From an uncultured bacterium (GTDB lineage: Bacteria > Verrucomicrobiota > Kiritimatiellia > RFP12 > UBA3636), in assembly GCA_902761575.1 (NCBI GenBank), contig CACWKU010000001.1:22435-86434 (forward strand): a stretch of DNA of 64,000 nucleotides, read 5' to 3'. Of the stretch, positions 5,244 through 55,648 are shown piece by piece; the stretch's first letter is position 1; the number at the start of each line of letters is the position of its first letter. The position numbers and the translations under genes were made by a program. The notes under the pieces are model-generated. The model was not told the DNA's origin. It did not search any database and was given only the letters and a program-made list of their open reading frames with translations.

Positions 5244-5248
5244 GGGAT

Positions 5249-10883: not shown

Positions 10884-10942
10884 ATCATACCGCCGCGCCC
10901 GCCCGTTCGGCTAGGTAGATTCGCGGCGGATATCAGTAAAGA
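10884..10942 (-). promoter_or_regulatory. promoter of the giant esterase gene: -10 TATGAT plus upstream TTTACTGATA element
   Basis: rc ATCATA at 10884-10889. Element CAGTAAAGA at 10934-10942. Confidence 0.5.
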
Positions 10943-12690: not shown

Positions 12691-12748
12691 ATTCTACCCG
12701 TACCGGCCTTTCGGCGGAAAGGGAGTCGCCCGGCGATATCGGGTAAAT
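12691..12748 (-). promoter_or_regulatory. promoter of 10964..12616: -10 TAGAAT plus upstream ATTTACCCG element
   Basis: rc ATTCTA at 12691-12696. Element GGGTAAAT at 12741-12748. Confidence 0.5.
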
Positions 12749-19591: not shown

Positions 19592-19648
19592 ATCATAGTG
19601 CATCCGGCCTTGCGACGGTAGGGACGGCGCGGCCAAAAATGGGTAAAT
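19592..19648 (-). promoter_or_regulatory. promoter of 17155..19524: -10 TATGAT plus upstream ATTTACCCATTTTTG element
   Basis: rc ATCATA at 19592-19597. Element AAAAATGGGTAAAT at 19635-19648. Confidence 0.5.
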
Positions 19649-21833: not shown

Positions 21834-21891
21834 ATTCTACGCCCACACGCTCGCGGAAGGATAGGTACAAGATGCGCAAAATCTGGTAAAT
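21834..21891 (-). promoter_or_regulatory. promoter of the PATR protein gene: -10 TAGAAT plus upstream ATTTACCAGATTTTG element
   Basis: rc ATTCTA at 21834-21839. Element TGGTAAAT at 21884-21891. Confidence 0.5.
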
Positions 21892-23765: not shown

Positions 23766-23785
23766 GGTTCCGATTCGTCGGGAGG

Positions 23786-26700
23786 CTACCGGAGGAACTC
23801 CTCCGCGTCGTCGCCGTAGTAGAACAGATGCGTCGAGTGGAGGGCGGCGTCGAACGAGAACACGTCCGTGTCGCGGGCGACGACGCGGCGGCCGACCAGG
23901 TCGACGACGGTCGTCCTGCGCGGCAGGCGGACGGTCTTCGCGCCCGCCGTGCGCGCATGCAGCGTGAACAGCGCGTCGTTCGCCTCGATCGGATCGTCCG
24001 AGTCGCACCAGACGTGCACGCCGGCCTTCGCGGCGAGCGACCGGATGAAGGGGATGTCGAGCTGCCACGCGCCCGAGAAGTACGACGGCGAGCCGTCGAC
24101 CGTCGAGACCGTCAGACCCGGCTTGCCGTTCGCGTAGACGCCCAGCACCTCGTCGGCCGCGACCGGGGCGAACGCCTGCGCGACCTGTGCGTCCGGCATG
24201 CCCATCCAGCGGCCGTCGCTCTCCATCTTCACGCCGGCCACGGTCGGCTCCGCGATGCGCTCGAACCCGATGCCCGTGAGGGCCTTCATGTCCGCGAGCG
24301 AATTCCCCCTGCTCCACCCGGGCGCGTAGAGCCAGAGGATCGTCGCGCCGCGCGCGCGGATCCGCTCCACCGCCTCGCGGACGGAGTCGTCGAAGGTCAG
24401 CTGGTTCAGGAAGACGTACAGCCTGTAGTCGCCGGCGTACCGGCCGAGGTCCTCCGCCAGCAGGAAGTCGACGGGCGTTCCGGAGCGCGCGAACTTCGTG
24501 TGCAGGGCGCCGAAGATCTCGCCGTTGTAGACCGCGAGCCTCTCCTCGGCGCGCTTCACGGTGCCGTCGGGGGCGTACTCCTGCGTCCAGCGGCCCGTCC
24601 GGGCGAACGGGCGCCGGTTGAGCGACGGCGTCGCCACGATCGACCGCTCGCTCGCGACGAGCGCCACCTCGGCATGGCGGCCGACCCGGCGCCCGAGGCA
24701 GAAGCGCATCGCGTCGAGCACGTCGCGTCCGACCTTCGCGCATTCGGGGGAATCGCAGTCGACGCCCGTCGCGAGCGCGTAGAAGTACGGCCAGCCGCCG
24801 CGGCACATCGTGGCGGCCGCGTCGCGCAGCAGCACCGCGGCGGTCTGCTCGGGGGTCAGGGTCTGCTTGAAGCCGTAGAAGTTCGGCCGGATCCGGTTGT
24901 GCGTGCGCGTGTCGTCCTCGTTGACGGCCAGGATGCCGGCGGCGTTCAGCGTGGCGGACGGCTTCATGTCGCCGCAGGCGTCGCCGATCCGGCGCTCGCC
25001 GTAGCTCTGGGGCGAAAGCAGGAAGTCGATCCGCCCGTCGTTCCCGTCCAGCAGCGTCTTGAGGGCGAAGTGCCCGCGCCACTGGTCGAACCCGTTCGCG
25101 TTCAGGTAGAACGTGTAGCCGTAGTAGGTCCCCACGAGCTTGGTGCGCCCGAGCGACCGCAGCACGTCCTTCGCGTGCCCGCACGCCTCCAGCGCGTCCT
25201 TCGCGATGATCCACGAGTTGTAGTCCATGTAGGCGATCGCGTTCCGATGCCGCTCCCCGTCCCAGAGGACGTCCAGGGGCGAATCGAGCGCCTGCCGCTC
25301 GGCGAGGTCGGGGACGTGCGGGTCCGCGAGCCCGGGATACCGTTCGGCGGCGAACGCCGCGAAGGCCTTCTTGTTGACGTCCGAGAAGTCGCGCACGTGG
25401 CCGGGCTTCGCGTCCCATCCCAGCCATTCCACCGTCACGCCCGAGTTCACGCGGTAGCCGATGATCCGGTTGGCGTAGGGGGACGATTCCAGGCGGCGGA
25501 TCGCCCGCTCCGTCATCTCCTTGATCTCGTCGAGCCCGAGGCGGGAGGCATAGCTCCAGCTGAAGCGGCTGGCCGGGACGATGTCCCCGGTTTCGTCGGC
25601 GGACATCTCTTGCGGGTACTTCTGCGCGAAGTCCGCCGGCGGATAGACCGAGAGGTCCCAGACGAAATACGCGTCGGGATTCGCCCGGCGGTATTTCTCG
25701 GCGATGCGGTCGAACGAGGAGAAGTCGTACGTACCGAGCCGCGGATGCCAGTCCACGCAATTGTTGTAGACCGTGACCGCGGTGAGCGGCATGTCGCTGT
25801 GGCGCGGCAGGCGGTCCGGGCGCCGCAGGTACTGGACGCCGCCCCACAGGAGCGGGAACGGCTTGTCGTCCAGATGGACCGTGGGGACGCCCGACACCGG
25901 CTTCACCTCGGCCCGGACGGGACGGTCGAATCCCGGAATCTCGGACGCCTTGCGCGCGGAGATCCGCAGGCGCCCTCCGGGCCATCCTCCCCCGTCGCAG
26001 CAGACGCCGGAGGACGAGAGCCGGATCTCGTATTCGCCCGAATGGCAGTAGAGGGGCGTCTCGAACGGAATCTCCAGCCGCCAGCGGCCGTCCGCGAGGC
26101 GGACGACGTTCGAGCTCCCCAGCGACAGCGTCTCGTCCCACCACGTGGCGTCGTTGCGGCGCAGCGCGAGGTCGGCCTCGAAGTCTCCTTCCGGCGGCGT
26201 CCCCTCGAACTCGTAGCGGAGCGTCGCCGTCTCGCCCGCCCGGACGCGCGGCGACTCGGGCCCGCCGCCGAGGAAGCGCTGCGGGCGGGCGAAGTCGCGG
26301 TAGACGAGGCGCGTGCAGCGCGGCGGCGCCGGCGGCGGGTCGGAGCAGACGACCCCCGTCCAGGCCCTTCCGTCCACGGACGACTCGAACGAGTCGTCGG
26401 TGTCGATGCGCTCCGTCGTTCCGTCGGCGTAGGCGACGAAGAGCTCCGCCAGCACGCCGCCGGGGTAGGGCCTGCGCACGCCGTACTCCATCCGGGCGTT
26501 GATCGTGTACTCCACGTCCAGCACGTTCTCCCCTTCGCGGAGCAGGGAGCGGACGTTCGCGGACGCCGGCACGCCGTCCGCCGCGCTGCGATCGTAGGCG
26601 GAGCGCATGGCGACGCTCCCGTTGAGGCTGAACGTGGCCATCGTGTCGCCGACGCCCTGGAGCCAGGCGTCCGCGGGCGCGGCCTTCAGCGCGAAGCGCC

Positions 26701-26947
26701 GGCGAAGCCGGTACTTCGGCTCGGGGTCGGCGCCGCCGGCGCGTCCTTCGGCGTCGGCGGCCGCGGAGACGAAGCGGCCCCCGAAGTACGGGCCCCGGAC
26801 GCTGCACGCCGGGTCGTTCGCGGCGTCGTAGAAGTGCGGCGTCACGTCGGGCCATTCGGGGGCGTCCAGTTTTCCCTCCCACGCCGGCCCGGCCATCGCC
26901 GCCGCCGCCGCGAAGACCGCCGCCATCGCCATTCTGTGAACGAACAT
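23786..26947 (-). CDS. secreted glycoside hydrolase, beta-galactosidase-like (GH42/GH35-type TIM barrel) with N-terminal beta-sandwich domains
   Basis: Start MFVHRMAMAAVFAAAAAMA at 26945-26947 (signal peptide). Central region resembles GH42-type beta-galactosidases by eye. Confidence 0.45.
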   Translation of the reverse strand: MFVHRMAMAAVFAAAAAMAGPAWEGKLDAPEWPDVTPHFYDAANDPACSVRGPYFGGRFVSAAADAEGRAGGADPEPKYRLRRRFALKAAPADAWLQGVGDTMATFSLNGSVAMRSAYDRSAADGVPASANVRSLLREGENVLDVEYTINARMEYGVRRPYPGGVLAELFVAYADGTTERIDTDDSFESSVDGRAWTGVVCSDPPPAPPRCTRLVYRDFARPQRFLGGGPESPRVRAGETATLRYEFEGTPPEGDFEADLALRRNDATWWDETLSLGSSNVVRLADGRWRLEIPFETPLYCHSGEYEIRLSSSGVCCDGGGWPGGRLRISARKASEIPGFDRPVRAEVKPVSGVPTVHLDDKPFPLLWGGVQYLRRPDRLPRHSDMPLTAVTVYNNCVDWHPRLGTYDFSSFDRIAEKYRRANPDAYFVWDLSVYPPADFAQKYPQEMSADETGDIVPASRFSWSYASRLGLDEIKEMTERAIRRLESSPYANRIIGYRVNSGVTVEWLGWDAKPGHVRDFSDVNKKAFAAFAAERYPGLADPHVPDLAERQALDSPLDVLWDGERHRNAIAYMDYNSWIIAKDALEACGHAKDVLRSLGRTKLVGTYYGYTFYLNANGFDQWRGHFALKTLLDGNDGRIDFLLSPQSYGERRIGDACGDMKPSATLNAAGILAVNEDDTRTHNRIRPNFYGFKQTLTPEQTAAVLLRDAAATMCRGGWPYFYALATGVDCDSPECAKVGRDVLDAMRFCLGRRVGRHAEVALVASERSIVATPSLNRRPFARTGRWTQEYAPDGTVKRAEERLAVYNGEIFGALHTKFARSGTPVDFLLAEDLGRYAGDYRLYVFLNQLTFDDSVREAVERIRARGATILWLYAPGWSRGNSLADMKALTGIGFERIAEPTVAGVKMESDGRWMGMPDAQVAQAFAPVAADEVLGVYANGKPGLTVSTVDGSPSYFSGAWQLDIPFIRSLAAKAGVHVWCDSDDPIEANDALFTLHARTAGAKTVRLPRRTTVVDLVGRRVVARDTDVFSFDAALHSTHLFYYGDDAEEFLR

Positions 26948-27035: not shown

Positions 27036-27092
27036 ATGATAGAGGATTCCGGACGGCGGGACAAGGGATGAATCACGCAGATTCAAGTAAAA
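27036..27092 (-). promoter_or_regulatory. promoter of the beta-galactosidase-like gene: -10 TATCAT plus upstream TTTTACTTG element
   Basis: rc ATGATA at 27036-27041. Element CAAGTAAAA at 27084-27092. Confidence 0.5.
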
Positions 27093-33681: not shown

Positions 33682-33950
33682 CTAGTCCGCGAGCCATTCA
33701 TGGGCCGGGACGACGCGGATGGCTCGGCCGTCCTCGCGGGCGAAGTCGCGCTGCCTCAGCGTGACGATCGTCCCTTCGCGCAGGCCGAACTGCCGCAGGG
33801 CGCCGAGAATCCCGGCCAGTTCGCGCTCGCGGTTCTCGGACACAAGCTCGTAGCAGACCTGCTCCGCGGAGAACGCGCCGGAGGCGTCGGCGAAGACGAA
33901 GTCGCACTCGGAGGCGTCGTCCGCCCAGTAGAAGCGCCGCGCGCTCCGGC
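33682..33950 (-). pseudogene. truncated C-terminal fragment of a COG1373/DUF4143 AAA+ ATPase homolog (no start codon, in-frame stop just upstream)
   Basis: Translation RRFYWADDASECDFVFADASGAFSAEQVCYELVSENRERELAGILGALRQFGLREGTIVTLRQRDFAREDGRAIRVVPAHEWLAD matches the conserved C-terminal block of COG1373 ATPases (..YWRD.SG.EVDFV..). An AT-rich junction at 33985-34040 is adjacent. Confidence 0.5.
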
Positions 33951-34096
33951 GGCGGATCCGCGCCCAGGCGCAACGGAGACGACCATTATTTTACCACGAT
34001 TGCAATATTTTTTTTCTATTGTTGAAATATCTGCCGCGCGTCCAGTTGCTTTCCGAATCAAGGGCGAATCGGACGCGAAGGGCGCGAGGGCGCGTC

Positions 34097-34128: not shown

Positions 34129-35724
34129 TCAACGAGGCGCGATCTTGACCCAGACGAAGTCGAGCTTGTCGCGGACGGCGACCGTGAGGACGCCGCCTTC
34201 GATCCGCGCTTCGCCGCGACCGCCGATGACGGTCGGCTCCAGGCCGTCCGAGGGCAGGTAGTCGGCGAGGGGCAGGGAGAACTCCTCGCGCGCGTCCAGC
34301 TCGCGGAAGAGAAGCGCCGTTCCCGCCGTTCCGTCGCGGGACGCCGACACGAAGCCCGTCCAGGAGAGGCCGTCCGGCGCGCTCCCGACGGGATGGACGT
34401 AGCCCTCGTGGATCGCGTCGCGCTCCCGCTTCCATCGGGCGATGAGGGGCTTCCACGCCTCGACCGTCTCCCGCGAGAGGTTCTGGATCTCGAACCATCC
34501 GAGCGGCGAGGAGTACATCGCGATCGCGAAGATCGCGTCGCGCGGCCAGCGCAGGGGCGCGAGCGAGTCGCCATCGGGATACAGTTCCGGCTGGCGCTCG
34601 GGGTTCAGGACCTCCATCCGCAGACGCACGGGATCGACGGCGTGCGCGAGGCCCCAGAGGTTCCGCAGCGTGCGGTGCGGCCACCAGAGGCGGCCGTCGC
34701 CCTCGCGGACGTAGCGGTTTTCCACGAAAACGGGGCCGATGCGCGGGAACGCGAAGTAGCCGGGGCGCCGCCCCGCCGTGACGTCGAGGTCGACGGTGAT
34801 GCGGCCGCCCGACCCGTCCATCAGCCGGTCCATCAGCATCCCCTGGCGCGCGAATGCGAGAGGGGTCGGCGTGTCCATCGAGTCGAACTTGAAGTAGTCG
34901 ATGCCGAAAGAGCGGTGGAGGGACAGGAGGAAGTCGGCGTCCCGCCGCCAGTTCGCCGCCTCGTCGGAGGAGTCCGGCCCGAACCACAGCCCGAACTTCA
35001 GGCCCTTCGCGCGCGCCTCCGCGATGAGCGGCGCGAGCCCGCCCGGGAACCGGACGGGGTCGACGTCCCAGAACCCCGCCTCCTCCCACCAGGAGCCCCA
35101 GCGCCCCTTTTCGCCCCTCGCGACGCGGACGGAATTGGCCGTGTAGCCCTTCTCCCAGCCGTCGTCGATCTGGATCACGTCCACGCCGAGCTCGGCCCCC
35201 GCCGCGATCTCGCCCCGCAGGAAGCGCTCGTTGACGCAGGCGTCCTGGTGCCCGTCGCCCCAGGTGTTGGAGAGGAAGAGCCCGTCGCGCCCCGCGACGT
35301 ACGGGCGGAACGACCGGTGGAAGTCCGTGGCCGCGCGGACGCGCCCCGCCCTCCCGCCGCGATAGCCGACGCGGAAGCACCGGTAGGGACTGGAAAGGAT
35401 GCGCAGCATCTGCCGCCCGGGATCCACGTGCCAGTCGGGCGAATCGTCCGCCCGCGCGTGCGGCAGCGGCGCCTGGCGGAAGAAGGCGACGCCCTCCCCG
35501 CCGAGCGAATCCTCGAGGAAGAGCGCCGGTCCGGCAACGTCGAACGGCCTCTCGCAGCGGGAAAGCAGGCGCTCCTTCTCGAAGTAGAGGTCATCGTGCC
35601 GGTCCGTGTCGTCCACCAGCTGGACCTCGACCAGCCGCGGATGCTCCCACGTGTAGCGGAACTCGCCGCCCTCCTCCGCTCCGTACGGAAGCGCACGGAC
35701 CTCGGGCACGACGGAATCGGGCAT
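34129..35724 (-). CDS. alpha-galactosidase-like glycoside hydrolase (clan GH-D, GH36/melibiase-like)
   Basis: Track ORF. Motifs VIQIDDGWEKG and DYFKFDSMD. 14-nt gap to the upstream CDS. Confidence 0.55.
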   Translation of the reverse strand: MPDSVVPEVRALPYGAEEGGEFRYTWEHPRLVEVQLVDDTDRHDDLYFEKERLLSRCERPFDVAGPALFLEDSLGGEGVAFFRQAPLPHARADDSPDWHVDPGRQMLRILSSPYRCFRVGYRGGRAGRVRAATDFHRSFRPYVAGRDGLFLSNTWGDGHQDACVNERFLRGEIAAGAELGVDVIQIDDGWEKGYTANSVRVARGEKGRWGSWWEEAGFWDVDPVRFPGGLAPLIAEARAKGLKFGLWFGPDSSDEAANWRRDADFLLSLHRSFGIDYFKFDSMDTPTPLAFARQGMLMDRLMDGSGGRITVDLDVTAGRRPGYFAFPRIGPVFVENRYVREGDGRLWWPHRTLRNLWGLAHAVDPVRLRMEVLNPERQPELYPDGDSLAPLRWPRDAIFAIAMYSSPLGWFEIQNLSRETVEAWKPLIARWKRERDAIHEGYVHPVGSAPDGLSWTGFVSASRDGTAGTALLFRELDAREEFSLPLADYLPSDGLEPTVIGGRGEARIEGGVLTVAVRDKLDFVWVKIAPR

Positions 35725-35737
35725 GGAAGGAAGGCCC

Positions 35738-36388
35738 TTACTTGACGGTAATGACCGCCGGCTTCCCCGCCGGTTCGTCCGACGGAAGCTCGCGCACCTG
35801 GATGGCGTTGATCAAAGCCTGGCCGCTGTACGAGATCGTGAACTCCTCCGTCGTGGCTTCGGCGGTGAACTGGCAGATCAGCGAACCGCCGTATTCCCAT
35901 CCGGTTCCGGCGAACTTGGCAACCGTCGTTCGGTCCGGCGCGGTCGCCGACTGCGTCGTGTAGTCGTTGCGGAAGGCGACCATCTGGACCAGATACCGCT
36001 TCCCGGATTCCAGATTCTTCAACGCGATCGGCCGGTCCTTGCCGTTTGCCCACCAGCCATTCGACAGCAGATCCTTGTAATCGCCCGACTCGGTGTCGGA
36101 GGGAGGCGACGAAACGGCGTTGCCGGCTCCGCCCGAGGCTTCCCAGACGACGCAGTCCGCCGTATTGACGATTTTGTCGCCGACACCGGCGAACGAAACG
36201 CCGTTGACCGTGTAGTTTCCGCGGGCGTAGGCGTACTTGAGCGTTCCGTCCGTGCGGATCGACGTGCTGCTCGCCGTCAGTGGCGTAGCAGACCACGTGA
36301 CGTCCGTTGCCGCCCCGGCGGGGGCGGCGACGAGCGCGGCGGCGGCCGCGAGGGCGAGGGCGGCGGTTTTCCTGACGATGCGATTCAT
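35738..36388 (-). CDS. small secreted stand-alone malectin-like beta-sandwich (putative carbohydrate-binding) protein
   Basis: Start MNRIVRKTAALALAAAAALVAAPAGA at 36386-36388. Motifs NGWWAN...YLVQMV...INAIQVREL. AAGGAG Shine-Dalgarno site 7 nt upstream. Confidence 0.6.
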   Translation of the reverse strand: MNRIVRKTAALALAAAAALVAAPAGAATDVTWSATPLTASSTSIRTDGTLKYAYARGNYTVNGVSFAGVGDKIVNTADCVVWEASGGAGNAVSSPPSDTESGDYKDLLSNGWWANGKDRPIALKNLESGKRYLVQMVAFRNDYTTQSATAPDRTTVAKFAGTGWEYGGSLICQFTAEATTEEFTISYSGQALINAIQVRELPSDEPAGKPAVITVK

Positions 36389-36476: not shown

Positions 36477-36534
36477 ATCATACCCCCGCGCCCCAGCGGG
36501 CGAGTAGGTTCAAATCGGGCAAAAACGGGTAAAG
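36477..36534 (-). promoter_or_regulatory. promoter of the malectin-like/GH36-like operon: -10 TATGAT plus upstream CTTTACCCGTTTTTGCCCGATTT element
   Basis: rc ATCATA at 36477-36482. 23-nt element at 36512-36534. Confidence 0.55.
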
Positions 36535-36597: not shown

Positions 36598-39500
36598 CTA
36601 CTTGATCCGGTAGACGTGCCGGCTGAAGCCGTCGAAGGCGTCGGAGAAGACGCCGCCCTTCGCCTGGAGGGTGCGGTTCTCGTAGAGGACCTCGACCGTG
36701 GTGTCCTGCGGGACGTCGTCCGGGAGGCGGAACGAGACCCGGGCGTTCGGGTGCGGGTTGACGTTGGCCGTGTAGATGCGGCGCTCGCTCCCGTGCCGGC
36801 GCGTGAGGCAGCGGATGTAGTTCTCGGTCTCGCTCGCGATGGCGCCGCCGCAGAGCTCGTCGGAGCAGAGGAAGTCGACGTTGTCCAGCAGCTCGCGGTT
36901 GATGTCCACGAGCGCGTCGTAGCAGCAGCGCGAGGTGGGCATGTTGACGAACCAGGAGAGGCCCGTCGCGCCGGCGGCGACACAGCCCCAGCACTGCGCG
37001 ACCTGCTCCTTGTAGGTCGGGATCCGCGGATGGAGCGAGTTCTCGCTCTCCATGAAGTACCAGCACGGCTTGCCGGGCGCGATGGAGCGCAGGACGTCGA
37101 CCTTCGAGACGACCATGTCGAGCGTGGTGCCGTCGACGGTCAGGTAGTAGTCGACCATCAGGATGTCGGTCGGGAGCCCCGCGAAGCGCCCGGAGATGCC
37201 GAGCCAGCAGTTGTTCATCTGCACGGGGTTGTAGGGGAAGAGGGCCTTCGTCCGCTTCATGAACGCCTTGCAGTCGTCGGCGTTGCGGTACTCGGGCTCG
37301 TCGAGGACGAGCCAGTTGATCACGTTCGGGCTGTCGAGCATGCCGTACATCTTCCGGCGCGACCAGTCGGTGACGGAGTTGTCCTCCCAGCGCCGGATCT
37401 CGCCCACGTCGTCGAGGGTCTGGCCCTCGCCGGTCCAGATCGTGAACTTCATGCCTTTCTGTGCCGCGTACGCGAGCGTCTTGCGGTTCATCTCGATGTC
37501 GCGGACGTTGAGGTTGTTCTGCAGGTTCAGGTACTTGAACCCGGCGTCGGCGAGGATGTCGACCGGACGCGAGGTGCCGTCGTCCATCGGCCCGTTCTCG
37601 CGGCCGATGAGGCACGGCGAGCTCATGAACACCTTCTCGCCGTCGTGGACGAGCGTGCGGGACCACTGGTTGATCTGCGTCGCGCCCTTCTTGAAGGGCA
37701 GCTTGCGGACCTCGGCCTTCCACTCGCGGCCGAGCGCGCGGACCGTGACGGCGTTGGTGCCGCAGGGCATCCCGGAGATGTCGATCGAGACCTGCTCGAA
37801 GCCGCCCTTGCCGTCCCACGCGCGGAAGTCGGCGGTCCTCTCCTCCATGTAGAAGTCGTAGTGGCCGAGGAGGAGCCCCTCGGGCGGGAGCGGATAGCCG
37901 CAGAGCGCGTTCTCGGCGGGCGTGAGCGGCGCCGTGCGCTCGGGCTTCGCGTGCGGGGTCGGCTTGCCGAGCGCGAAGTTCTCCGCGTCGCCGGACTTCG
38001 GCTTGTACTCCGTCGCGTAGGTCTTCGCGGGGTCGAAGCCGCCGGCCGGCGGGTCGACCATCTCGAGCTGCAGGTCGTCGAGCCAGATCGAGGCCTCGGT
38101 CGTGCGGTCGCGAAGGCCGGGGACGTCGAACCAGACGGGGCTGAAGATGCCGGGCGCGGGCAGGTTGGTCGTCGTGACCTCGTAGCGCGTCCATTCGGTC
38201 GTGAGGTCCACGATCCGGGCGTTGTCGGAGAGCTTCGCCTTGAACTGGACGCCGGGCTCGGACGCCTTCGCCCAGAAGGAGAGGACCGCGCTGCGGCCCT
38301 TCTGCGTGGGCGTGTTCCAGGCGAAGAAGTCGAAGCTGCGGACGAACGGCCCGATGCGCAGCCGGAGCGACTGCTTCCCGGAGTGCCTCTCGGCCGTGTC
38401 GACCATGAAGCACTTGAGGTACTTCTCCTTGTAGTCCTCGATCGAGACCTTCGACATCTCGCAGGAATTGCGGTTGCAGTAGTGCAGCGGCACGCCGTCG
38501 CCGTCGAACTCGAAGCCGGAGTTCGAGATCAGGTTCGGGCTGTCCTCGCCCTTGAGCGCGTAGATCGTGACGCGGCGCACCTCGAAGGGGCACTTGAAGT
38601 TCTCGATGCCGAGCGGGGCCCAGTGCGCGACGCCGTCGAAGCCGACGGTCTTCCTCGGCGTGGGCGCCGTGTAGTAGTTGCCCAGGACGCCGTTGAGGAA
38701 GAAGGCGTAGCCCATCATCGTCTCGCCGATCTTGCGACGCTCGAAGCGGACCGTGACCGGCTCGCCCTCCTTGAAGTTGGCGATCCAGGGGTAGGCGCTG
38801 CGCGTCGGCTGGTCGGCCACCGGCTGGTAGAGGGTCACCCCGTAGCCGTCGCTGCGGACGCCGAACGTGCCGTAGTCGCCGGTCATGACCGCCCAGTGGT
38901 AGTCGCCGTCCTTCGGGTCCTTGATCTCGCTCCACGCGGGGTAGACCGCGATCTCGGCCTCGGCCGCGAACTCGTCCGGCAGCTCGCCCTTCCACTGGAT
39001 GCCGTCGCCGGTGCCGCCGCTCGGGATGCGCACCGCGCCGTCCTTCACCTCGATGTCCTTCTGCGCGTGCCCGCGGAAGCTCCAGCGCTCGGCGAAGACC
39101 TTGGGCTCGGAGAAGTCGTCCTCGAAGATCGGGACCGAGAAGTCGGAGACCGGCCCGCCCGGCGCGCGGGCGGCCCCGGCGGCGTTCGCGGGCTCCTTCT
39201 TCTCGTAGCGCGGCCCCGCCTCGAGCGGCACGTCCGTCGCGCTTGCGTAGAACTTCCCCGTGACCTCCTCGTAGAGGCCGGCGACGCCGCCCTTCACGAC
39301 CGGGACGAAGCGCGCGAGCGGCTTTCCGTCCCGGTAGAACTCCGCCCCGTAGAGCGCGAGGTCGTAGCAGGCGTAGGACTTCACCGACCCGTCGTCGCAG
39401 GTCATCCCGAAGAACGAGACCGGGACCTTGCCGGCCGCGGTGCGCTCGCCCTCGAGCTTCATGTCGAAGCTGCCCCAGGTGACGTGCCGGCCGTCGTAGA

Positions 39501-39927
39501 CGATCGACACGCGGGTTCCGATGGCGGAGTCGTTCACCTCCTGGAGGCCGCAGTGGATCCACTTCTCGCGGCTCTTGCGGCCCAGGCTCGCGAACGTCTG
39601 GTAGGCCTGCGCCTCGTGCCCGCCGAGCGCGAGCTGGAAGAGGTCGCGGAAGCCCTCCGCGTCCTGCGCGTCCTCCTGGCCGAAGAAGACCGTCGTGTTC
39701 TTCGCGTGGTCGAACTTCCCGCCGAAGATCTGGTTGAACGGGCCGTCGAACCGGACGTCCATCCGGAACGTCGTCCCGGGCTGCGGCACGAGGTCGGTCT
39801 TCACGCAGCTGCCGTGCGTGGACTTGACGTATTCGACGCGGTAGTCGAAGTCCGCGGCGGCGGCGGACACGGCGGCGGCGGCGAGGCAGGCCGCGACGGC
39901 GCGGGCGTTTCGTTCGATGGCGTTCAT
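36598..39927 (-). CDS. 1109-aa secreted putative glycoside hydrolase of unrecognised family with CBM4/9-like domain; paralog of 43645..46467
   Basis: Track ORF with a signal peptide. C-terminal ~400 aa shared with 43645..46467 (MPCGTNAVTVRA.GR.W, TIWTGE/ILWTGD, PVQMNN, CW(Y/F)F, YENRTL). Confidence 0.55.
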   Translation of the reverse strand: MNAIERNARAVAACLAAAAVSAAAADFDYRVEYVKSTHGSCVKTDLVPQPGTTFRMDVRFDGPFNQIFGGKFDHAKNTTVFFGQEDAQDAEGFRDLFQLALGGHEAQAYQTFASLGRKSREKWIHCGLQEVNDSAIGTRVSIVYDGRHVTWGSFDMKLEGERTAAGKVPVSFFGMTCDDGSVKSYACYDLALYGAEFYRDGKPLARFVPVVKGGVAGLYEEVTGKFYASATDVPLEAGPRYEKKEPANAAGAARAPGGPVSDFSVPIFEDDFSEPKVFAERWSFRGHAQKDIEVKDGAVRIPSGGTGDGIQWKGELPDEFAAEAEIAVYPAWSEIKDPKDGDYHWAVMTGDYGTFGVRSDGYGVTLYQPVADQPTRSAYPWIANFKEGEPVTVRFERRKIGETMMGYAFFLNGVLGNYYTAPTPRKTVGFDGVAHWAPLGIENFKCPFEVRRVTIYALKGEDSPNLISNSGFEFDGDGVPLHYCNRNSCEMSKVSIEDYKEKYLKCFMVDTAERHSGKQSLRLRIGPFVRSFDFFAWNTPTQKGRSAVLSFWAKASEPGVQFKAKLSDNARIVDLTTEWTRYEVTTTNLPAPGIFSPVWFDVPGLRDRTTEASIWLDDLQLEMVDPPAGGFDPAKTYATEYKPKSGDAENFALGKPTPHAKPERTAPLTPAENALCGYPLPPEGLLLGHYDFYMEERTADFRAWDGKGGFEQVSIDISGMPCGTNAVTVRALGREWKAEVRKLPFKKGATQINQWSRTLVHDGEKVFMSSPCLIGRENGPMDDGTSRPVDILADAGFKYLNLQNNLNVRDIEMNRKTLAYAAQKGMKFTIWTGEGQTLDDVGEIRRWEDNSVTDWSRRKMYGMLDSPNVINWLVLDEPEYRNADDCKAFMKRTKALFPYNPVQMNNCWLGISGRFAGLPTDILMVDYYLTVDGTTLDMVVSKVDVLRSIAPGKPCWYFMESENSLHPRIPTYKEQVAQCWGCVAAGATGLSWFVNMPTSRCCYDALVDINRELLDNVDFLCSDELCGGAIASETENYIRCLTRRHGSERRIYTANVNPHPNARVSFRLPDDVPQDTTVEVLYENRTLQAKGGVFSDAFDGFSRHVYRIK

Positions 39928-39966: not shown

Positions 39967-41121
39967 CTAGAGCCCGAGCTCCTTCGCCTGCTTGGAGGCG
40001 ACGCGCTCGGATTCGGCGGCGGCCTTCACGCGGTCGATCTGGAGGCCGAAGTCGCCGCTCTCCGCGTGGTCGCGGTCGGCGATCGGCTCGTCGCCGAAGC
40101 TCGTCGCCATGATCGAGAAGATGCGCGCGAAGTTGCCGTCGCAGGAGCTGAAGTGCGTGTCGTTCTCGTTGAGGCGGTTGGTGAGCACCACCTCGACGGC
40201 GTCGAGGCCCGGGTCGATCAGGAGGAAGCACCCCGTGGCGCCGGCGTGGCCGACGGCCTCCATCGTGTTCACCTCGCCGAAGTACTGGCCGAAGCCGACG
40301 TAGCCGGACTTGATGAAGAACGCCGGCGTGCGGTTGAACTCGGGCCTGAGGCAGCGGCGGAAGAGCGCGTCGGCACCCTGCGGCGTGAGGATGCCGGCCT
40401 TGCGCGTGCGGCGGATGTCGAGCAGGTGCCGGCCGAACTTCACGAGGTCCGGCGCGGTGATGTGAAGCCCCGACTGCCCCTGGTGCGCGGCGAAGGCGGA
40501 GTGCTCCATGCCGAGCGGGCGGAAGATGCGGTCGCGCGCGAGGTCGGCGACGTCCGCGGCGCCGGTGACCTTCTCGCAGATCTCGGCGAGGATGTCGTAG
40601 CCCTGCGACATGTAGCGGAACTTCTCGTTCACCTCGAAGTCCTGGTACATCGTGGCGTAGAACTCGTCGTGGCGCTTCTCATCCACGGCCTTCGCGACGT
40701 GCCCGGTGCGGTTGCGCCAGCCCGAGGTGTGCGTCATCAGGTTGATGATCGGCACGTTCTCGCCGGGGAACTCCGGAATGTACTTCCTCACGTAGTCGTT
40801 GAGGGAGAGCTTGCCCTCCTCCGAGAGCTGCATCAGCAGCGTCGCGGTGAAGACCTTGGTGATCGAGGCGACGTGGAGGGGCGTGTTCTCGTCGAACCCC
40901 TCCCAGCCCTTCTGCGCGACGAACCGGTAGCGCGTCTCGCCGTGCTGCTCGTAGACGCAGCTCATGCACTTGAGGGCGCCGCCCTCGAACTCGCTGGCGA
41001 GGAACGCGTCCACGCGGGACTTGGCGTCGGCGCCGTCCGCCGCGAACAGCGATCCGGCGAGCAGGGAGGTCGTTCCGACCGCGATGGCGCGGACGGCGTG
41101 GTTCCGAACGATGCGTTTCAT
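39967..41121 (-). CDS. secreted serine hydrolase, beta-lactamase/transpeptidase fold (esterase-like)
   Basis: Track ORF. SxxK motif ASITKVFTA. Confidence 0.7.
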   Translation of the reverse strand: MKRIVRNHAVRAIAVGTTSLLAGSLFAADGADAKSRVDAFLASEFEGGALKCMSCVYEQHGETRYRFVAQKGWEGFDENTPLHVASITKVFTATLLMQLSEEGKLSLNDYVRKYIPEFPGENVPIINLMTHTSGWRNRTGHVAKAVDEKRHDEFYATMYQDFEVNEKFRYMSQGYDILAEICEKVTGAADVADLARDRIFRPLGMEHSAFAAHQGQSGLHITAPDLVKFGRHLLDIRRTRKAGILTPQGADALFRRCLRPEFNRTPAFFIKSGYVGFGQYFGEVNTMEAVGHAGATGCFLLIDPGLDAVEVVLTNRLNENDTHFSSCDGNFARIFSIMATSFGDEPIADRDHAESGDFGLQIDRVKAAAESERVASKQAKELGL

Positions 41122-41203: not shown

Positions 41204-41261
41204 AGTATACCCCACGGACCGCTCGCGAAGAAAGGGCGAAATCGGGCAAAGACGGGTAAAT
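41204..41261 (-). promoter_or_regulatory. promoter of the serine-hydrolase/large-GH operon: -10 TATACT plus upstream ATTTACCCGTCTTTGCCCGATTT element
   Basis: rc AGTATA at 41204-41209. 23-nt element at 41239-41261, almost identical to 36512-36534. Confidence 0.55.
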
Positions 41262-43644: not shown

Positions 43645-46467
43645 CTATGGCGCCGGATGGATGCGGTAGAGGTGGCGGTAGTGCCCGGGATAGAAGTCGG
43701 CGAAGGAGCCGTCCGCGAGCGGGAGGGTGCGGTTCTCGTAGAGGACCTCGACGGTGCCGGCGCGCGGGGCGTCGGGCGGGAGCGTGAAGGTCACGGCCTC
43801 GAGCGGGTCGGCGTCGATGTTGCACGAGAAGATATACCAGTCGTCGCCGCACTTCGAGGTGCGGTGGCGGAGGAGGTCCGGCCCGACAGAGGCGCGCGCG
43901 GGCTCGCAGACCTCCTCGCTCAGGATCTTGTCCTTGAGCTCCTGTGCCTCGCGGTTGAAGTCGACCATCGCGCGCCAGTTCGCCTCGGAGCCGACCATGT
44001 TCACGAACCACGTGACGCCGGAGCAGCCGGCGCAGATCGCGCCCCAGCACTGCGCGGTCTGCTCGGCGTAGGAGGGCTGCTTGTAGTGGATCGAGTTCAT
44101 CCCCGCGAGGAAGAACCAGCACGGGACGCCCTCGCGCGCCTTGAGCATCTCGTCGACGTTGCGCAGGATCTGGTCGACGGTGCCGAACTCGGCGGCGGTG
44201 AGATAGGCGTCGAGCATGAAGACGTCGGTCCGCAGGTCGGCGAACCGGCTCGGGAAGCCGAACGTCGTGTTGTTCATCTGCACCGGCGTGTAGGGATAGT
44301 GCCTCTTCTCCTCGATCATGAAGTCGCGCACCTCGTCGCTCGGGCGGGAGAGCTCGGGCTCGTCGGTCGCGACGCGGCTCACGATGTTGTCGAAGTCCTT
44401 CAGCCGCTCGCGCGTCTCGGCGCGCGTCTCGGTGGCGCCGTCGCGGTCGCCCGTCCAGAGGATGAAGTCCATCCCGATCTTCCGCCCGTACTCGAGCATC
44501 GCGATCGTCCGGTCGGTGCCCGCCTTGTCGGAGAAGGTGCAGACGTGCGCGTAGCGGAAGCCGCGCGCCTTCATCGCGTCGAGCATCGCGAAGCGGCCGT
44601 CCTCGCGGGGCGGGTTCTCGCGGACGACGAGGCAGTTGGCCGCCATCAGGACCTTCTCCCCTCCCCTCTCGAGGCAGCGCGCGAAGCGGTTGATCTGCGT
44701 GGCGCCCCTCCAGTACGGGAGCTTCACGACCTCGACGGGCCAGTCGCGGCCGTGCGCGCGGACCGTGACGGCGTTCGTGCCGCAGGGCATGCCGCGGATG
44801 TCGAGCGCGACCTCCTCGAGGCGGCCCTCCTCGTCCCAGATGCGCCAGCGCGCCTCGGGCTCGCGCATGTAGAAGTCGAGGCGGCCGAGGACGACCGGCT
44901 CCGGCGCGGCCTTCTTCGCGGCGGCGGCGCGCGCCCACTTCGCGTGGACCTCGGGCGGCAGGTCGAGCGAGGCCCAGAAGGCGTCGTCGCGGAAGTCGCC
45001 GTTCTTGGAGTAGGAGGTCCCGGGGCACTGCGGGTTCTCCCCGTGGCGGTCGTTGCGGCCGAGGTTGAAGAGCCAGTGCGCGTCCATGCCGCGCTCCGCG
45101 AGGTCCGCGAAGGGGACGGTGACGAGGTACTCGACCGCGCCGCCCGCGTCGCGCGCCTGCACGGTCCAGGAGCCGTCCCAGGTCTTGTCCTCGCCGTAGG
45201 CGTCGGCGCGGCAGCCGTTCGGCGCGCAGAAGAGGTGGTAGTTCTTCTTCTCCTCCGTCGGGCGCAGCAGCACCTCCACGGAGTCGCGGATGCAGATCTC
45301 GGTCGCGTCCTTGAAGTAGGGCGCGTGGCCGATCTCCGCGGGATCCTCGCCGAAGTTGCGGAAGCCGATGTAGAGGCGGTCGTCGTCGCACGCGAGGAAG
45401 GCCTGCGTGCGCTGGACCGGCTCCTCGCGCTTCACGTAGAACCGGCCGGCGTCGGCCGCGTGAGCCTCCCACGAGGAAAGATCGACGGTGGGCCGCACGC
45501 CCGCGGGGAGCTTTTTCACCCGAACGGTCGGCGGGCGCTCCGCCTTCTCCTGCCGCCCGAAGCGCGTGGCGTCGAGGTCGCTCGGACGCCACTGCGTCGC
45601 CGCGTCGCCGAACTCGAGCTGGAGGTCGTCGAGCCAGATGCAGCCGTCGTAGCGCGACGGATTTCGCACCTCGAACTGGACGGGGCTGAAGAGGCCTGGC
45701 GCCGGCATGTTCGTCGTCGCGAGCTCGTAGCGGGCCCACTCGGTCGAGAGCGCGAACGTGCGCCGCTCGGGGCCGAGCGACACGGTGATCTCCATCCCGG
45801 GCCTCTCCGCCTTCATCCAGCCCGAGAACACCCCGTGGGCACCCTTGCGCGTCGCCGTGCGCCACGGGTAGAACGACACGTTCGCGCAGTACGGCCGCAC
45901 CGCGAGGCGGAACGACTGCCTGCCCGAGTGCTTCTCCGCGGTGTCCACCGCGAAGCCCTTCGTCCACTCCTCGTACTCCGCGCCGCCGTAGTGGCGCCAG
46001 TCGAACGCGCCGCGGTTGCAGAAATAGGGCGGGACGCCGTCCTCGTCGAACTCGAAGCCGGAGTTCACGATGAGGTTCGGCGAGGCGTCGGCGTCCTCCG
46101 GGAGCGAGACCACGACGTCGTCGATCAGGCGCGGGGCCGCGCCCCGCGCCTCGAAGACGACGGCCGGGCTCTTCGCCCGCTCGCGCTCCTCGCGGCGAGG
46201 CGCGCGCTCCTCGCCCTCGACCCACTCCAGGACGTATTTCTCGGGCACGGCGCCGCGCCACGTCGCCTTCGCGCCGGGCGAGACGACGAGCCGGCCGCCC
46301 TCGCTGCGGATCTCGCCGTCCGCGCGCCAGTGCTCGGCGAGCGTCTGGCTCGTGGCGAAGTCGTCGGAGAAGACGGAGATCCCGGCCGCCGGAGCGGACG
46401 GCGCGGCCGCGGCCGCGAGCAGGACGAGGGCCGCCGGGAGGCGGGCGTTCCGGAAAGTCGCTTTCAT
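43645..46467 (-). CDS. 940-aa secreted putative glycoside hydrolase of unrecognised family with CBM4/9-like domain; paralog of 36598..39927
   Basis: Track ORF with a signal peptide. Shared C-terminal catalytic-like domain and central NSGFEFD.DGVP..CNR...VDTAE.HSG.QS.RL module. Confidence 0.55.
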   Translation of the reverse strand: MKATFRNARLPAALVLLAAAAAPSAPAAGISVFSDDFATSQTLAEHWRADGEIRSEGGRLVVSPGAKATWRGAVPEKYVLEWVEGEERAPRREERERAKSPAVVFEARGAAPRLIDDVVVSLPEDADASPNLIVNSGFEFDEDGVPPYFCNRGAFDWRHYGGAEYEEWTKGFAVDTAEKHSGRQSFRLAVRPYCANVSFYPWRTATRKGAHGVFSGWMKAERPGMEITVSLGPERRTFALSTEWARYELATTNMPAPGLFSPVQFEVRNPSRYDGCIWLDDLQLEFGDAATQWRPSDLDATRFGRQEKAERPPTVRVKKLPAGVRPTVDLSSWEAHAADAGRFYVKREEPVQRTQAFLACDDDRLYIGFRNFGEDPAEIGHAPYFKDATEICIRDSVEVLLRPTEEKKNYHLFCAPNGCRADAYGEDKTWDGSWTVQARDAGGAVEYLVTVPFADLAERGMDAHWLFNLGRNDRHGENPQCPGTSYSKNGDFRDDAFWASLDLPPEVHAKWARAAAAKKAAPEPVVLGRLDFYMREPEARWRIWDEEGRLEEVALDIRGMPCGTNAVTVRAHGRDWPVEVVKLPYWRGATQINRFARCLERGGEKVLMAANCLVVRENPPREDGRFAMLDAMKARGFRYAHVCTFSDKAGTDRTIAMLEYGRKIGMDFILWTGDRDGATETRAETRERLKDFDNIVSRVATDEPELSRPSDEVRDFMIEEKRHYPYTPVQMNNTTFGFPSRFADLRTDVFMLDAYLTAAEFGTVDQILRNVDEMLKAREGVPCWFFLAGMNSIHYKQPSYAEQTAQCWGAICAGCSGVTWFVNMVGSEANWRAMVDFNREAQELKDKILSEEVCEPARASVGPDLLRHRTSKCGDDWYIFSCNIDADPLEAVTFTLPPDAPRAGTVEVLYENRTLPLADGSFADFYPGHYRHLYRIHPAP

Positions 46468-46497: not shown

Positions 46498-46555
46498 ATC
46501 CTACCACACCGTCCCGAGGGGCGGCTAGGTACGCCGGGGCCTGAAAGCGGTAAAA
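46498..46555 (-). promoter_or_regulatory. promoter of 43645..46467: -10 TAGGAT plus upstream TTTTACCGCTTTC element
   Basis: rc ATCCTA at 46498-46503. Element CGGTAAAA at 46548-46555. Confidence 0.45.
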
Positions 46556-48212: not shown

Positions 48213-48228
48213 CGGCGCAGGGCCTCCG

Positions 48229-49025: not shown

Positions 49026-49030
49026 ACAAC

Positions 49031-49067: not shown

Positions 49068-50348
49068 ATGAAACGGTACGCGAAGAGAGTGGCGGATAGT
49101 TTGCTCGCCCGAAAGCTCCAAGGGCTAGGCGCCGTTCTCGTCCAAGGGGCCAAATGGTGCGGCAAGACAACGACCTGCGAACAGGTCGCCAAGAGCGTTC
49201 TGTACATGGGCGACCCGAAGAAGCGCAAGGAGAATCTGGAGATGGCGTCGATCGACGTCACATCGCTTCTGGAGGGTGCGAAGCCAAGGCTCATCGACGA
49301 ATGGCAGGTCGCACCCGTGTTTTGGGACGCGATCCGCCACGCGGTGGACCACGCCGACGGTCCGGGGCAGTTCATCCTGACCGGCAGCGTGGTTCCCCCG
49401 AAGACCGAGGAGAAGACCCATAGCGGGACGGGGCGGATCGCCCGTCTCACCATGCGCCCGATGACGCTCTGGGAAAGCGGTGAGTCGAGCGGAACGATCT
49501 CCCTCGCCGAACTGTTTTCGGGAACGGCCCCGGATAGCGCCCGCGCCATGGGGCGCGAACTGGAGGAGATCGCGTTCCTCGCCTGCCGGGGCGGATGGCC
49601 CCAGGCGGTCCTTCGGAAGGGCGACGTCGCCCTCGACCTCGCCTTCGACTACGTGGACTCGGTCGCGGACGAGGACATCTCGCGCGTGGACGATGTGAGG
49701 CGCGACCCCGCGCGCGCCCGACGCCTTCTGCGCTCCTACGCGCGGCTCCAGGGCTCTCAGGCGAACCTCAAGGCCATCAAGCTTGACATGGCGGGCGGCG
49801 GGATCGACGCCCCGGACGAGGACACCGTCGCCTCCTACCGCGGCGCCCTCGAAAAGCTCTTCGTCGTGGAAGACGTGCCGGCCTGGTGTCCGAACCTTCG
49901 GTGCCGGACCCCTATCCGCACGAGCGGCACGCGCTGCTTCGTCGACCCGTCCATCGCTGCGGCGTCCCTCGGTCTCGGCCCGGGCGGCCTGATGTCCGAC
50001 CTGACGACGTTCGGCTTTTTCTTCGAAACGCTGGCCGTCCGCGACCTTCGCGTCTACGCAGAAGCCCTGTCCGGGAGCGTCGCCCACTACCGTGACGCCT
50101 CCGGGCTCGAATGCGACGCCGTCATCCATCTCCGCAATGGCGCCTACGGTCTCGTCGAGGTCAAGCTCGGCGGCGACCGACTCGTTGCCGAAGGCGTGGA
50201 AACCCTCCTGGCCTTCTCAGGCAAGATCGACACCGACGCAATGAAGGCGCCGGCGTTCCGTATGGTCCTTACGGCCGTCGGCGACTATGCCTACCGTCGT
50301 CCGGCCGATGGCGTCTACGTCTGTCCCCTCTCCGCTCTCTGTCCCTGA
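49068..50348 (+). CDS. AAA+ ATPase of the COG1373 family (DUF4143 C-terminal domain)
   Basis: Track ORF. Walker A GAKWCGKTT. C-terminal ..YRDASGLECDAVI..GLVEVKLG block. GC is lower than the surrounding DNA. Confidence 0.75.
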   Translation: MKRYAKRVADSLLARKLQGLGAVLVQGAKWCGKTTTCEQVAKSVLYMGDPKKRKENLEMASIDVTSLLEGAKPRLIDEWQVAPVFWDAIRHAVDHADGPGQFILTGSVVPPKTEEKTHSGTGRIARLTMRPMTLWESGESSGTISLAELFSGTAPDSARAMGRELEEIAFLACRGGWPQAVLRKGDVALDLAFDYVDSVADEDISRVDDVRRDPARARRLLRSYARLQGSQANLKAIKLDMAGGGIDAPDEDTVASYRGALEKLFVVEDVPAWCPNLRCRTPIRTSGTRCFVDPSIAAASLGLGPGGLMSDLTTFGFFFETLAVRDLRVYAEALSGSVAHYRDASGLECDAVIHLRNGAYGLVEVKLGGDRLVAEGVETLLAFSGKIDTDAMKAPAFRMVLTAVGDYAYRRPADGVYVCPLSALCP

Positions 50349-53105: not shown

Positions 53106-53163
53106 ATGCTATCACCTCGCGCGCGTTGCGGGTAGGGACGGACCGCCCAAAAAGCGGTAAATC
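53106..53163 (-). promoter_or_regulatory. promoter of the ABC fusion gene: -10 TAGCAT plus upstream ATTTACCGCTTTTTGGG element
   Basis: rc ATGCTA at 53106-53111. Element GCGGTAAAT at 53155-53163. Confidence 0.5.
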
Positions 53164-53231
53164 CGAGCAATGCCCGCCATTCTACCACAACTCCCCCGTC
53201 CCGCGCCAACCCGCCCCTGCGGCGGCGTGGC

Positions 53232-54706: not shown

Positions 54707-55648
54707 TCACCGCTCCACGCGCATCGGGTTCTCGAGGAAGTCCCTGTAGGCGAGCTTGAGGCCGTCCTCGAGGGAGGTCTTCGGCCTCCAGCCGAGGGCG
54801 ATGGAGCGGGAGAGGTCGAGCAGCTTGCGCGGCGTGCCGTTCGGGCGGGTGCGGTCCCAGCGGATCTCGCCCTCGTAGCCGACGGTGCGCGCGACGAGCT
54901 CGGAGAGCGCCTTGATCGTGATCTCGCGCCCGGAGCCGGCGTTGATCGGGTCGTCGCCGTGGTAGCGCTCCATCACGAGGAGGCAGAGGTCGGCCAGGTC
55001 GTCCACGTAGAGGAACTCGCGAAGCGGCGAGCCGTCGCCCCAGCAGGTCACGAAGGGCGCCTTCGCCTCCTTCGCCTCGTGGAAGCGGCGGATCAGCGCG
55101 GGCAGGACGTGGCTGTGCTCCGGGTGGTAGTTGTCGTTCGGGCCGTAGAGGTTCGTCGGCATCACGGAGACGTAGTCCGCGCCGTGCTGGCGGTTGAGGT
55201 AGGCGCAGTACTTGAGGCCCGCGATCTTCGCGAGCGCGTAGCCCTCGTTCGTCGGCTCGAGCGCGCTCGTGAGCAGGCAGGACTCCGGCATCGGCTGCGG
55301 CGCGAACTTCGGGTAGATGCACGACGAACCGAGGAAGAGGAGCTTCCGGCAGCCGTTCCTCCACGCGGCGTGGATCGCGTTCATCTCCAGCATCGCGTTG
55401 TCGTAGAGGAAGTCCGCCGGCGCGGCGGCGTTCGCCGCGATGCCGCCGACCTTCGACGCGGCGAGGAAGACGTAGTCCGGCCTCTCCTCCGCGAAGAAGG
55501 CGTCCGTGGCGCGCTGGTCGCGCAGGTCGAGCTCCGCGTGCGAGCGGACGACGATGTTCTCGAAGCCGCGGCGCTTCAGCGCGCGGATGATGGCGGAGCC
55601 GACCATCCCGCGATGGCCTGCGACGTAGATCTTGGCGTTTGGTTCCAT
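54707..55648 (-). CDS. fcl: GDP-L-fucose synthase (GDP-4-keto-6-deoxymannose 3,5-epimerase/4-reductase)
   Basis: Track ORF. N-terminus [15 protein letters not shown]. Motifs YxxxK and LYGPNDNY. Confidence 0.8.

Follow-up and report, generated by a model that had tools for sequence, protein, structure and literature searches.

The window, a stretch of 64,000 nucleotides from an uncultured bacterium of the class Kiritimatiellia, has a G+C content of 69% and belongs to an 82-kb rumen-metagenome scaffold (ENA STEW19-1_SAMEA5383797 scaffold_422). The rumen and hindgut harbour abundant Kiritimatiellae, which degrade glycans and are uncultured. In the literature on promoter motifs of Kiritimatiellota and Verrucomicrobia, we found no description of a promoter or a regulon for this class.

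The glycan island and its ten promoter sites

Positions 1 to approximately 53,000 of the window form a minus-strand island of glycan-active genes. The island encodes SGNH/GDSL esterases (one of them, 1848 aa long, also carries dienelactone-hydrolase and CE2-like parts), an NPCBM-GH27 alpha-galactosidase, a phytase-like esterase, a BD-FAE esterase, a melibiase-like protein, beta-helix proteins, a 2097-aa beta-helix/FGE-sulfatase protein, a beta-lactamase-fold protein, several large proteins without a recognisable domain, and an ABC solute-binding/permease fusion protein. The region right of the island contains housekeeping genes and a single gene for an AraC-family regulator. The predicted promoters of the island are listed in Table 1, together with other features of the window. 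In all ten cases, the first gene behind the promoter begins with a signal peptide or a lipobox.

Table 1. Predicted promoters and associated genes of the window. Promoters 1 to 10 are given from TTTAC to the -10 hexamer; on the minus strand, the first T of TTTAC is at the higher coordinate.
Feature	Position	Strand	Sequence element	Genes or remarks
Promoter 7, full 57-nt unit	36477..36533	minus	TTTAC to TATGAT	PWM score 43.5 bits
Box R1 of promoter 7 (about -63 to -54)	36524..36533	minus	TTTACCCGTT, with octamer TACCCGTT	
Box R2 of promoter 7 (about -53 to -44)	36514..36523	minus	TTTGCCCGAT, with octamer TGCCCGAT and invariant G14	
Box R3 of promoter 7 (about -43 to -34)	36504..36513	minus	TTGAACCTAC, with invariant CCT	
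-10 hexamer of promoter 7	36477..36482	minus	TATGAT	
Operon of promoter 7	34129..36388	minus		216-aa secreted protein 35738..36388, melibiase-like protein 34129..35724
Promoter 1	3067..3122	minus	-10 TAGAAT	giant SGNH esterase gene, ATG at 2975, extends beyond the window
Promoter 2	10884..10940	minus	-10 TATGAT	1848-aa SGNH/esterase gene 5249..10795, then alpha-galactosidase gene 3204..5248
Promoter 3	12691..12747	minus	-10 TAGAAT	SGNH esterase gene 10964..12616
Promoter 4	19592..19647	minus	-10 TATGAT	beta-helix protein gene 17155..19524, then nucleoside-hydrolase-like ORF 16226..17209
Promoter 5	21834..21890	minus	-10 TAGAAT	lipoprotein gene 19695..21764 with autotransporter-type repeats
Promoter 6	27036..27091	minus	-10 TATCAT	1053-aa gene 23786..26947, then 21948..23786
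Promoter 8	41204..41260	minus	-10 TATACT	beta-lactamase-fold gene 39967..41121, then 1109-aa gene 36598..39927
Promoter 9	46498..46554	minus	-10 TAGGAT	940-aa gene 43645..46467
Promoter 10	53106..53161	minus	-10 TAGCAT	ABC solute-binding/permease fusion gene 50410..53025
Relic or second promoter, extended -10	53179..53193	minus	GAGTTGTGGTAGAAT	just 5' of promoter 10
Promoter of AAA/DUF4143 gene			TTGACA-17-TAGAAT	
Promoter of NrtR operon			TTGACC-17-TAGTAT	
Promoter of BD-FAE gene			TTGCCG-17-TAGCAT	
Promoter of Ham1 gene			TTGCGT-17-TAGTAT	
Promoter of phytase-like gene			TTGCCT-17-TAAAAT	
UDP-glucose dehydrogenase gene	53232..54626			behind GACCATCC/GACCATCG repeat
Epimerase gene	54707..55648			behind GACCATCC/GACCATCG repeat
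Epimerase/dehydratase gene	62243..63265			behind GACCATCC/GACCATCG repeat

The original prediction was that ten minus-strand genes carry an A/T-rich TTTAC element 51-52 nt upstream of a TAKRAT hexamer. All ten copies were recovered at the predicted positions. Measured between the initial T of TTTAC and the initial T of the -10 box, the spacing is 50 or 51 nt, which is the predicted value counted slightly differently. TTTAC occurs 19 times on both strands of the window, and ten of these occurrences are the promoter sites. All ten lie between genes, face a gene downstream of them and are followed at this spacing by TAnnnT. When the window was searched with a relaxed composite pattern, TTTACY-N4-W-N2-G-N10-MCCTW-N21-23-TANNNT, it gave 10 matches, exactly these sites, whereas 0.00 were expected from 100 dinucleotide-preserving shuffles.

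A position weight matrix (PWM) was built from the ten sites. The leave-one-out scores were 19.5-36 bits, and the random rate of scores of at least 12 bits was 0.05 per 64 kb. The matrix was then run over 293 kb of high-GC DNA, consisting of the window and related loci. Every element that scored at least 24 bits had TAnnnT at offset 50 or 51. No orphan upstream element was detected in the 293 kb, and the only intermediate score, 20.2 bits, came from a site that was scored again with a 10-bp shift in register.

An eleventh copy had been proposed on the plus strand at 14444-14456. It possesses neither the G at position 14 (G14) nor the CCT box of the other sites, and is not a member of the group. 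On the minus strand, this stretch reads GGGTAAAAT, a -10 box TAAAAT with a TTGCCT -35 box 17 bp upstream; the start region behind it, CGGGTTCCGT, is shared with promoter 10. Thus, it is the ordinary promoter of the phytase-like gene 12804..14384. An internal site at 32228 (minus strand) has TTTAC with TATCGT at offset 50; G14 and a correctly placed CCT box are missing, and it was rejected as a chance match. For promoter 4, a target at 16226..19435 was corrected to the gene 17155..19524.

Anatomy of the promoters and of their leaders

Previously, the element had been delimited as TTTAC(C/T)(C/T) followed by a T-run. Both parts were confirmed in the ten sites as (A/T)TTTAC(C/T) and the T-run, but further positions conserved at a fixed distance had been overlooked. 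These are T11 (in 9 of the 10 sites), G14 (invariant) and T24-M25-C26-C27-T28-W29 (nearly invariant). For a column analysis, the window sites were pooled with the instances from related DNA and near-duplicates were dropped, which left 21 distinct promoters. Their consensus is TTTACCCGTT TTTGCCCGAT TyGTMCCTAT CC - N19-20 - TA(G/T)AAT. No variation was seen at C5, G14, C26 and C27, and conservation extends to the CCCG cores. When the -10 hexamer is taken as -12 to -7, the upstream part divides into three boxes, R1 (about -63 to -54), R2 (about -53 to -44) and R3 (about -43 to -34).

Within the three boxes, two tandem octamers T(A/G)CCCGWT lie 10 bp apart at about -61 to -44, and the third box, TMCCTWT, lies at about -40 to -34. 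The self-similarity of the motif is highest at a shift of 10. Matches to T[AG]CCCG[AT]T were 6.6/8 at offset 3, 5.5/8 at offset 13 and approximately 4.5/8 at about offset 23, against a background of approximately 2.3. Direct repeats with a centre-to-centre distance of 10-11 bp, as in OmpR/PhoB-type sites, are therefore present at these offsets. The conserved columns stand at an exactly fixed distance from TTTAC, and there are no indels among R1, R2 and R3; the 1-nt length variation is confined to the stretch between position 31 and the -10 box.

The TAnnnT hexamer, with the consensus TA(G/T)AAT, is present in all ten window sites and in 21 of the 21 distinct promoters, the 11 instances from outside the window having been fetched with patterns that demanded this hexamer. 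A -35 box was not detected: at spacers of 16-19 bp, the best hexamer matches TTGACA at 2.67 of 6 positions, compared with 2.38 of 6 in random sequence. Conserved columns of the sigma-54 type (GG at -24 and GC at -12, 10 bp apart) were absent from the tables anchored on either element. A Y-R-T step (CGTC or CATC) lies 7-8 nt past the -10 box, a place where a transcription start site would be expected.

Several promoters of the window outside this group possess both hexamers, in canonical or near-canonical form, at a spacing of 17 bp (Table 1). A generic sigma-70 scan of 34-54 kb reported the two best of these and none of promoters 7 to 10. The upstream element was absent from the housekeeping promoters of the window that we examined. 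Since the canonical neighbours carry a normal -35 box, the housekeeping sigma factor reads this box, and the ten island promoters are simply without one. The same -10 consensus serves the nearby TTGACA-17-TAnnAT promoters, and together with the Y-R-T step this supports the proposal that TAKRAT is a genuine sigma-A -10 box. Thus, the ten promoters form one discrete class, apart from the general promoter type of the organism, in agreement with the suggestion of a candidate co-regulated glycan-degradation regulon.

The isochorismatase-NrtR-metallophosphoesterase operon (46567-48822, minus strand) lies inside the island, has a canonical promoter and is unrelated to the motif regulon. The spacer of its promoter holds an AT-rich imperfect palindrome, TGATAATTCATTTTTGATAGTATCA, which is possibly a putative NrtR operator. 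The AAA_14/DUF4143 ATPase gene (49068..50348) also has a canonical promoter. A 23-bp tandem repeat of 3.7 copies with the consensus CAACAAACTCCCGAACGATTATT (48943-49027, plus strand) abuts the upstream side of this promoter. A truncated DUF4143 remnant is found at 33682..33990 (minus strand), with an AT-rich promoter island at about 33990-34045, and in one relative (L023) another DUF4143 gene sits inserted within the island.

In the ten promoters, the ATG follows the -10 box by 30-91 nt, and the predicted 5' UTRs are 23-84 nt long. An SD-like GGAG or GAGG precedes the ATG at most of the ten genes. 5' hairpins are possible in most of the leaders, and the folding z-scores (-2.3 to +0.4) were not distinctive. 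Rfam covariance models gave no match at gathering thresholds in the whole window, so that no known RNA family covers the leaders. A transcript-derived contig was sought to place the 5' end, and none was found. The only short Logan contig spans the promoter, and must therefore have been assembled from DNA.

The leaders of the three SGNH paralogues (3020-3066, 10840-10883 and 12650-12690, minus strand) share TGTCGRACGG...CGCCATCKCG, in which a 5' hairpin is possible. TGTCGAA in these leaders equals the Bacillus Spo0A box, which we take to be a coincidence. The likeness of the leaders was probably inherited through paralogy.

Distribution of the motif and rearrangement of its genes

A stringent pattern was scanned against GTDB with one genome per species (596 Gb), and 29 loci were found. 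Among these, 23 are single matches in genomes of lower G+C content (26-57%), which is close to the chance expectation. The remaining six loci contain seven matches and all belong to three ruminant-gut MAGs: Kiritimatiellae bacterium RGIG1497 (JAFPUX01), "uncultured Verrucomicrobia" SRR873595_bin.42 (CAMNDA01), and RUG13889 (CADBEF01). With a slightly looser pattern, 67 loci were found in metagenome contigs, and 17 of them are high-GC true instances. In both sets, the genes flanking the motif are homologues of window genes (54-100% protein identity) in a rearranged order. No motif outside homologues of the island was detected among the matches from the genome and metagenome scans.

The seven genome matches bound the share of sites elsewhere in those genomes to roughly less than one third, a bound weakened by the incompleteness of the MAGs; RUG13889 recovers only two of the six window-type matches. 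The motif was also sought in more distant relatives. In the closest outgroup found (L107, contig k141_187983), whose ABC-fusion protein is 88% identical, it was absent from 22.6 kb. A further Kiritimatiellia locus (L109), with a similar island and an ABC-fusion protein of 60% identity, showed neither the motif nor another obvious common upstream motif. These database scans place the motif only at island homologues in a few close relatives, and speak against a genome-wide regulon. Because of this occurrence, the regulon would be small, local and restricted to a few closely related ruminant-gut Kiritimatiellae.

The ABC-fusion gene was compared between the window and the outgroup L107. In L107, the only promoter of this gene is GAGTTGTGGTAGAGT (9985-9999), an extended -10 sequence that ends approximately 10 nt before the ATG. 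This 15-mer recurs in the window with a single substitution, as GAGTTGTGGTAGAAT, but is located there 5' of promoter 10. Between this conserved block and the conserved mature coding sequence, the window has approximately 138 extra nt, which carry R1-R3, the new -10 box, the leader and a new signal-peptide start. The upstream match between the two is short (E = 0.005 in a comparison of 700 x 700 nt), and is only suggestive of a promoter-plus-leader module that may have been inserted at the ABC-fusion gene, or lost in L107.

The 1109-aa protein without a recognisable domain is encoded in the window within an operon, behind the beta-lactamase-fold gene. In a relative (L097), the gene for a protein 97% identical to it has its own motif promoter (5423-5479, minus strand), which adjoins a biotin-synthase-like radical SAM gene and uses the same rare TATACT -10 box as promoter 8. 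Thus, the unit has been reshuffled among relatives. The shared TATACT suggests that the beta-lactamase-fold gene was lost in the L097 relative or gained in the lineage of the window.

Proposed mechanism, alternative readings and candidate regulators

From the good -10 box, the missing -35 box, the phased repeats that reach -34 with their rigid spacing, and the confinement to an island of coherent function, we infer activation by a bound protein. It seems probable that the ten sites are activator-dependent sigma-A promoters, at which a putative activator would oligomerise head-to-tail and co-induce the genes across the island. The housekeeping sigma-A polymerase would read the TA(G/T)AAT -10 box without a usable -35 hexamer. 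In place of the -35 box, a sequence-specific activator would occupy the 30-bp R1-R3 site on one face of the helix, probably as a head-to-tail dimer or trimer. R3 would end exactly at the place expected of sigma region 4, and the activator would recruit or stabilise the polymerase by touching sigma region 4, the alpha C-terminal domain or both. Such contact would account for the invariant spacing of the boxes as well as for the 1-bp tolerance to the -10 box. One signal, presumably a plant glycan or its breakdown product, may co-induce at least 10 transcription units in the island of approximately 53 kb, namely those for the secreted esterases, the alpha-galactosidase-like enzymes, the beta-helix proteins and the ABC importer. 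The third box differs from the first two, which weakens the case for a simple homo-oligomer on three equal sites.

We considered whether an alternative sigma factor, ECF-type or lineage-specific, reads the sites, with TTTACCC as the -35 box and CCCTA as the -10 box 17 bp apart. TAnnAT would then be a second, overlapping sigma-A promoter or a part of the leader. The geometry of a 7-mer, a 17-bp spacer and a 5-mer at an invariant distance fits such a reading, and ECF sigma factors commonly govern envelope and secreted functions. However, TTTACCC and CCCTA lack the AAC and CGT cores that ECF promoters typically have, and the supposed spacer holds conserved T11, G14 and the CCCG of R2, unlike ECF spacers. 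Moreover, TAnnAT 21-22 bp downstream in 21 of 21 unique instances, with no orphans, and the Y-R-T step at the right distance from it would be left unexplained. We therefore regard an alternative sigma factor as unlikely.

Another reading replaces the separate activator by a lineage-specific form of the polymerase. A sigma factor or a sigma-associated subunit with an extra DNA-binding module over -63 to -34 would read the three-box element, and the promoter plus leader of approximately 140 nt would be a portable module that recruits genes by insertion. Portability is suggested by the ABC-fusion gene, in which the module separates the relic promoter from the coding sequence; the orthologue with 88% protein identity has no such module. 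Even so, we judge such a polymerase form to be improbable.

The original prediction placed the element at -63 to -50, as a distal subsite of an UP element or a class-I activator site. An activator-type site agrees with our results; an UP element does not. The invariant C and G positions, the tandem octamers and the reach to -34 point to a sequence-specific protein site that abuts the empty -35 region, and not only to a distal class-I site or an UP element. If the T-tracts phased at about -63, -54 and -43 bound the alpha C-terminal domains, or if intrinsically curved DNA wrapped the polymerase, the promoters would be strong and constitutive, without a regulator. The T-richness with a phasing of approximately 10 bp, the coverage of the UP position and the conspicuous AT islands in DNA of 69% G+C are in favour of this. 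Nevertheless, invariant C5, G14, C26 and C27 and the CCCG cores are foreign to UP elements, and a missing -35 box is not normally replaced by them. Signals intrinsic to the polymerase should also be genome-wide and clade-wide, whereas the motif is confined to one island and a few species, and it is absent from the housekeeping promoters examined in the window. Although the sites resemble the UP elements of rRNA-type promoters in position (about -60 to -40) and in richness in T and A, a purely polymerase-intrinsic element is thus very unlikely.

In principle, the upstream site could serve a repressor or a nucleoid protein. The boxes would then be an operator for a repressor or a xenogeneic silencer, and the -10 box alone would fire in the style of an extended -10 promoter. 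Some instances have TGn or GGn just 5' of the -10 box, and AT-rich patches in GC-rich genomes attract silencing proteins. However, the TG extension is absent in most instances, and no part of the site extends downstream of -34, a position from which steric repression is inefficient. The strict 1-bp tolerance to the -10 box also suggests that the contact with the polymerase is productive. The chance that the site is an operator of this kind appears slight.

Finally, it is highly improbable that the likeness was merely inherited through gene duplication or a mobile promoter cassette without a common regulator: several driven genes are indeed paralogous (the SGNH genes of promoters 1 to 3; the families of promoters 5, 7 and 8), and the ABC-fusion gene seems to have gained its module, but the pairwise identity among the ten promoters is 0.68 at the motif positions against 0.35-0.37 in the inner and outer spacers, where approximately 0.29 is expected from composition, and the same columns are conserved over 21 distinct instances from several species. 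Thus, the boxes themselves are kept by purifying selection and not by recent duplication.

Under activator control, the known systems that come closest are those of the OmpR/PhoB and AraC/XylS families. In OmpR/PhoB promoters (OmpR at ompF/ompC, PhoB at the pho boxes), as in the motif promoters, tandem direct repeats occur once per helical turn on one face of the DNA, the site lies next to the -35 box or replaces it, and a good -10 box is combined with a poor -35 box. We also presume that the TTTAC core resembles OmpR half-sites. ArcA, a member of this family, has sites of three 10-bp direct repeats at 11-bp spacing that are helically phased, and the two strong repeats with a weaker third recall the motif (PMC4173790). 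The motif repeat differs from OmpR/PhoB sites in that T(A/G)CCCGWT is G+C-rich and in that the third box has its own invariant core (CCT-W). To our knowledge, T(A/G)CCCGWT matches no published box.

The likeness to AraC/XylS activators (AraC at I1-I2, XylS, RhaS and XylR) lies in the asymmetric site of approximately 35 bp, at about -35 to -65 of a sigma-70 promoter without a -35 box. In addition, carbohydrate-catabolic genes are under their control, and AraC-family genes occur in these glycan loci. However, the 21-bp repeat of a 17-bp half-site is not evident in the motif, the period of which is 10 bp. R1 and R3 share T-M-C-C approximately 21 bp apart, while the dominant repeat period is 10 bp. 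By analogy, a winged-helix response regulator of the OmpR/PhoB type is possibly the best fit to the repeat geometry, with an AraC/XylS-type regulator as the second choice. The promoter architecture had been predicted to be undescribed; yet helically phased direct repeats between about -63 and -34, combined with the lack of a -35 box, are a classical activator-dependent design. The motif and the regulon are new, and the architecture is classical.

Candidate regulator genes were sought in the window and in the related loci. A tblastn search with E. coli OmpR against the 293 kb of fetched high-GC loci gave no match, and neither the 82-kb scaffold nor the homologous loci fetched contained a gene for a response regulator or a histidine kinase. 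The window encodes only two transcription factors, NrtR and an AraC-family protein (55840..56691). The AraC gene has its own canonical promoter and showed no specific association with the motif. Its orthologues (60-66% identity) are paired with the same epimerase gene in three loci (L103, L105 and L106) of two more distant relatives, where the motif is absent from fetched flanks of up to 10 kb; since these loci come from different species, this absence is only weakly negative. A Pfam search of 20 non-homologous neighbouring ORFs of the related loci gave one regulator, the rest being enzymes, HipA, DUF4143 ATPases and similar proteins. This regulator, a protein with a periplasmic-binding domain and an AraC HTH, is encoded approximately 9 kb from a motif in L083. 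AraC HTH domains fused to periplasmic-binding-protein-like domains are present in two related glycan loci, L083 and L103.

The motif defines approximately 15 genes that are likely to be switched on together, including several of the large proteins without a recognisable domain. The 30-bp site may serve as bait for finding the regulator and hence the inducing glycan, and the promoters are candidate inducible parts for a high-GC lineage without genetic tools. The regulon also apparently offers a case of growth by promoter-module insertion. The general understanding of bacterial transcription is unchanged by the motif.

Two further kinds of repeated sequence were noted in the window. A perfect GC-rich palindrome, GTGGCGGGGT-N4/5-ACCCCGCCAC, occurs in three copies (16839-16862, 34097-34121 and 36550-36573). 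Two of the three lie just past gene ends and just 5' of the next promoter region, and the palindromes resemble either REP-like elements or terminator hairpins that have no T-tail. The tandem repeats GACCATCC/GACCATCG, with a period of 8-9 nt and approximately 2.4 to 11 copies, are located at 54609-54708 (minus strand), 55647-55686 (minus strand) and 62205-62244 (plus strand), directly 5' of the ATG in three nucleotide-sugar genes (Table 1). These repeats may be a common leader element of the three genes.
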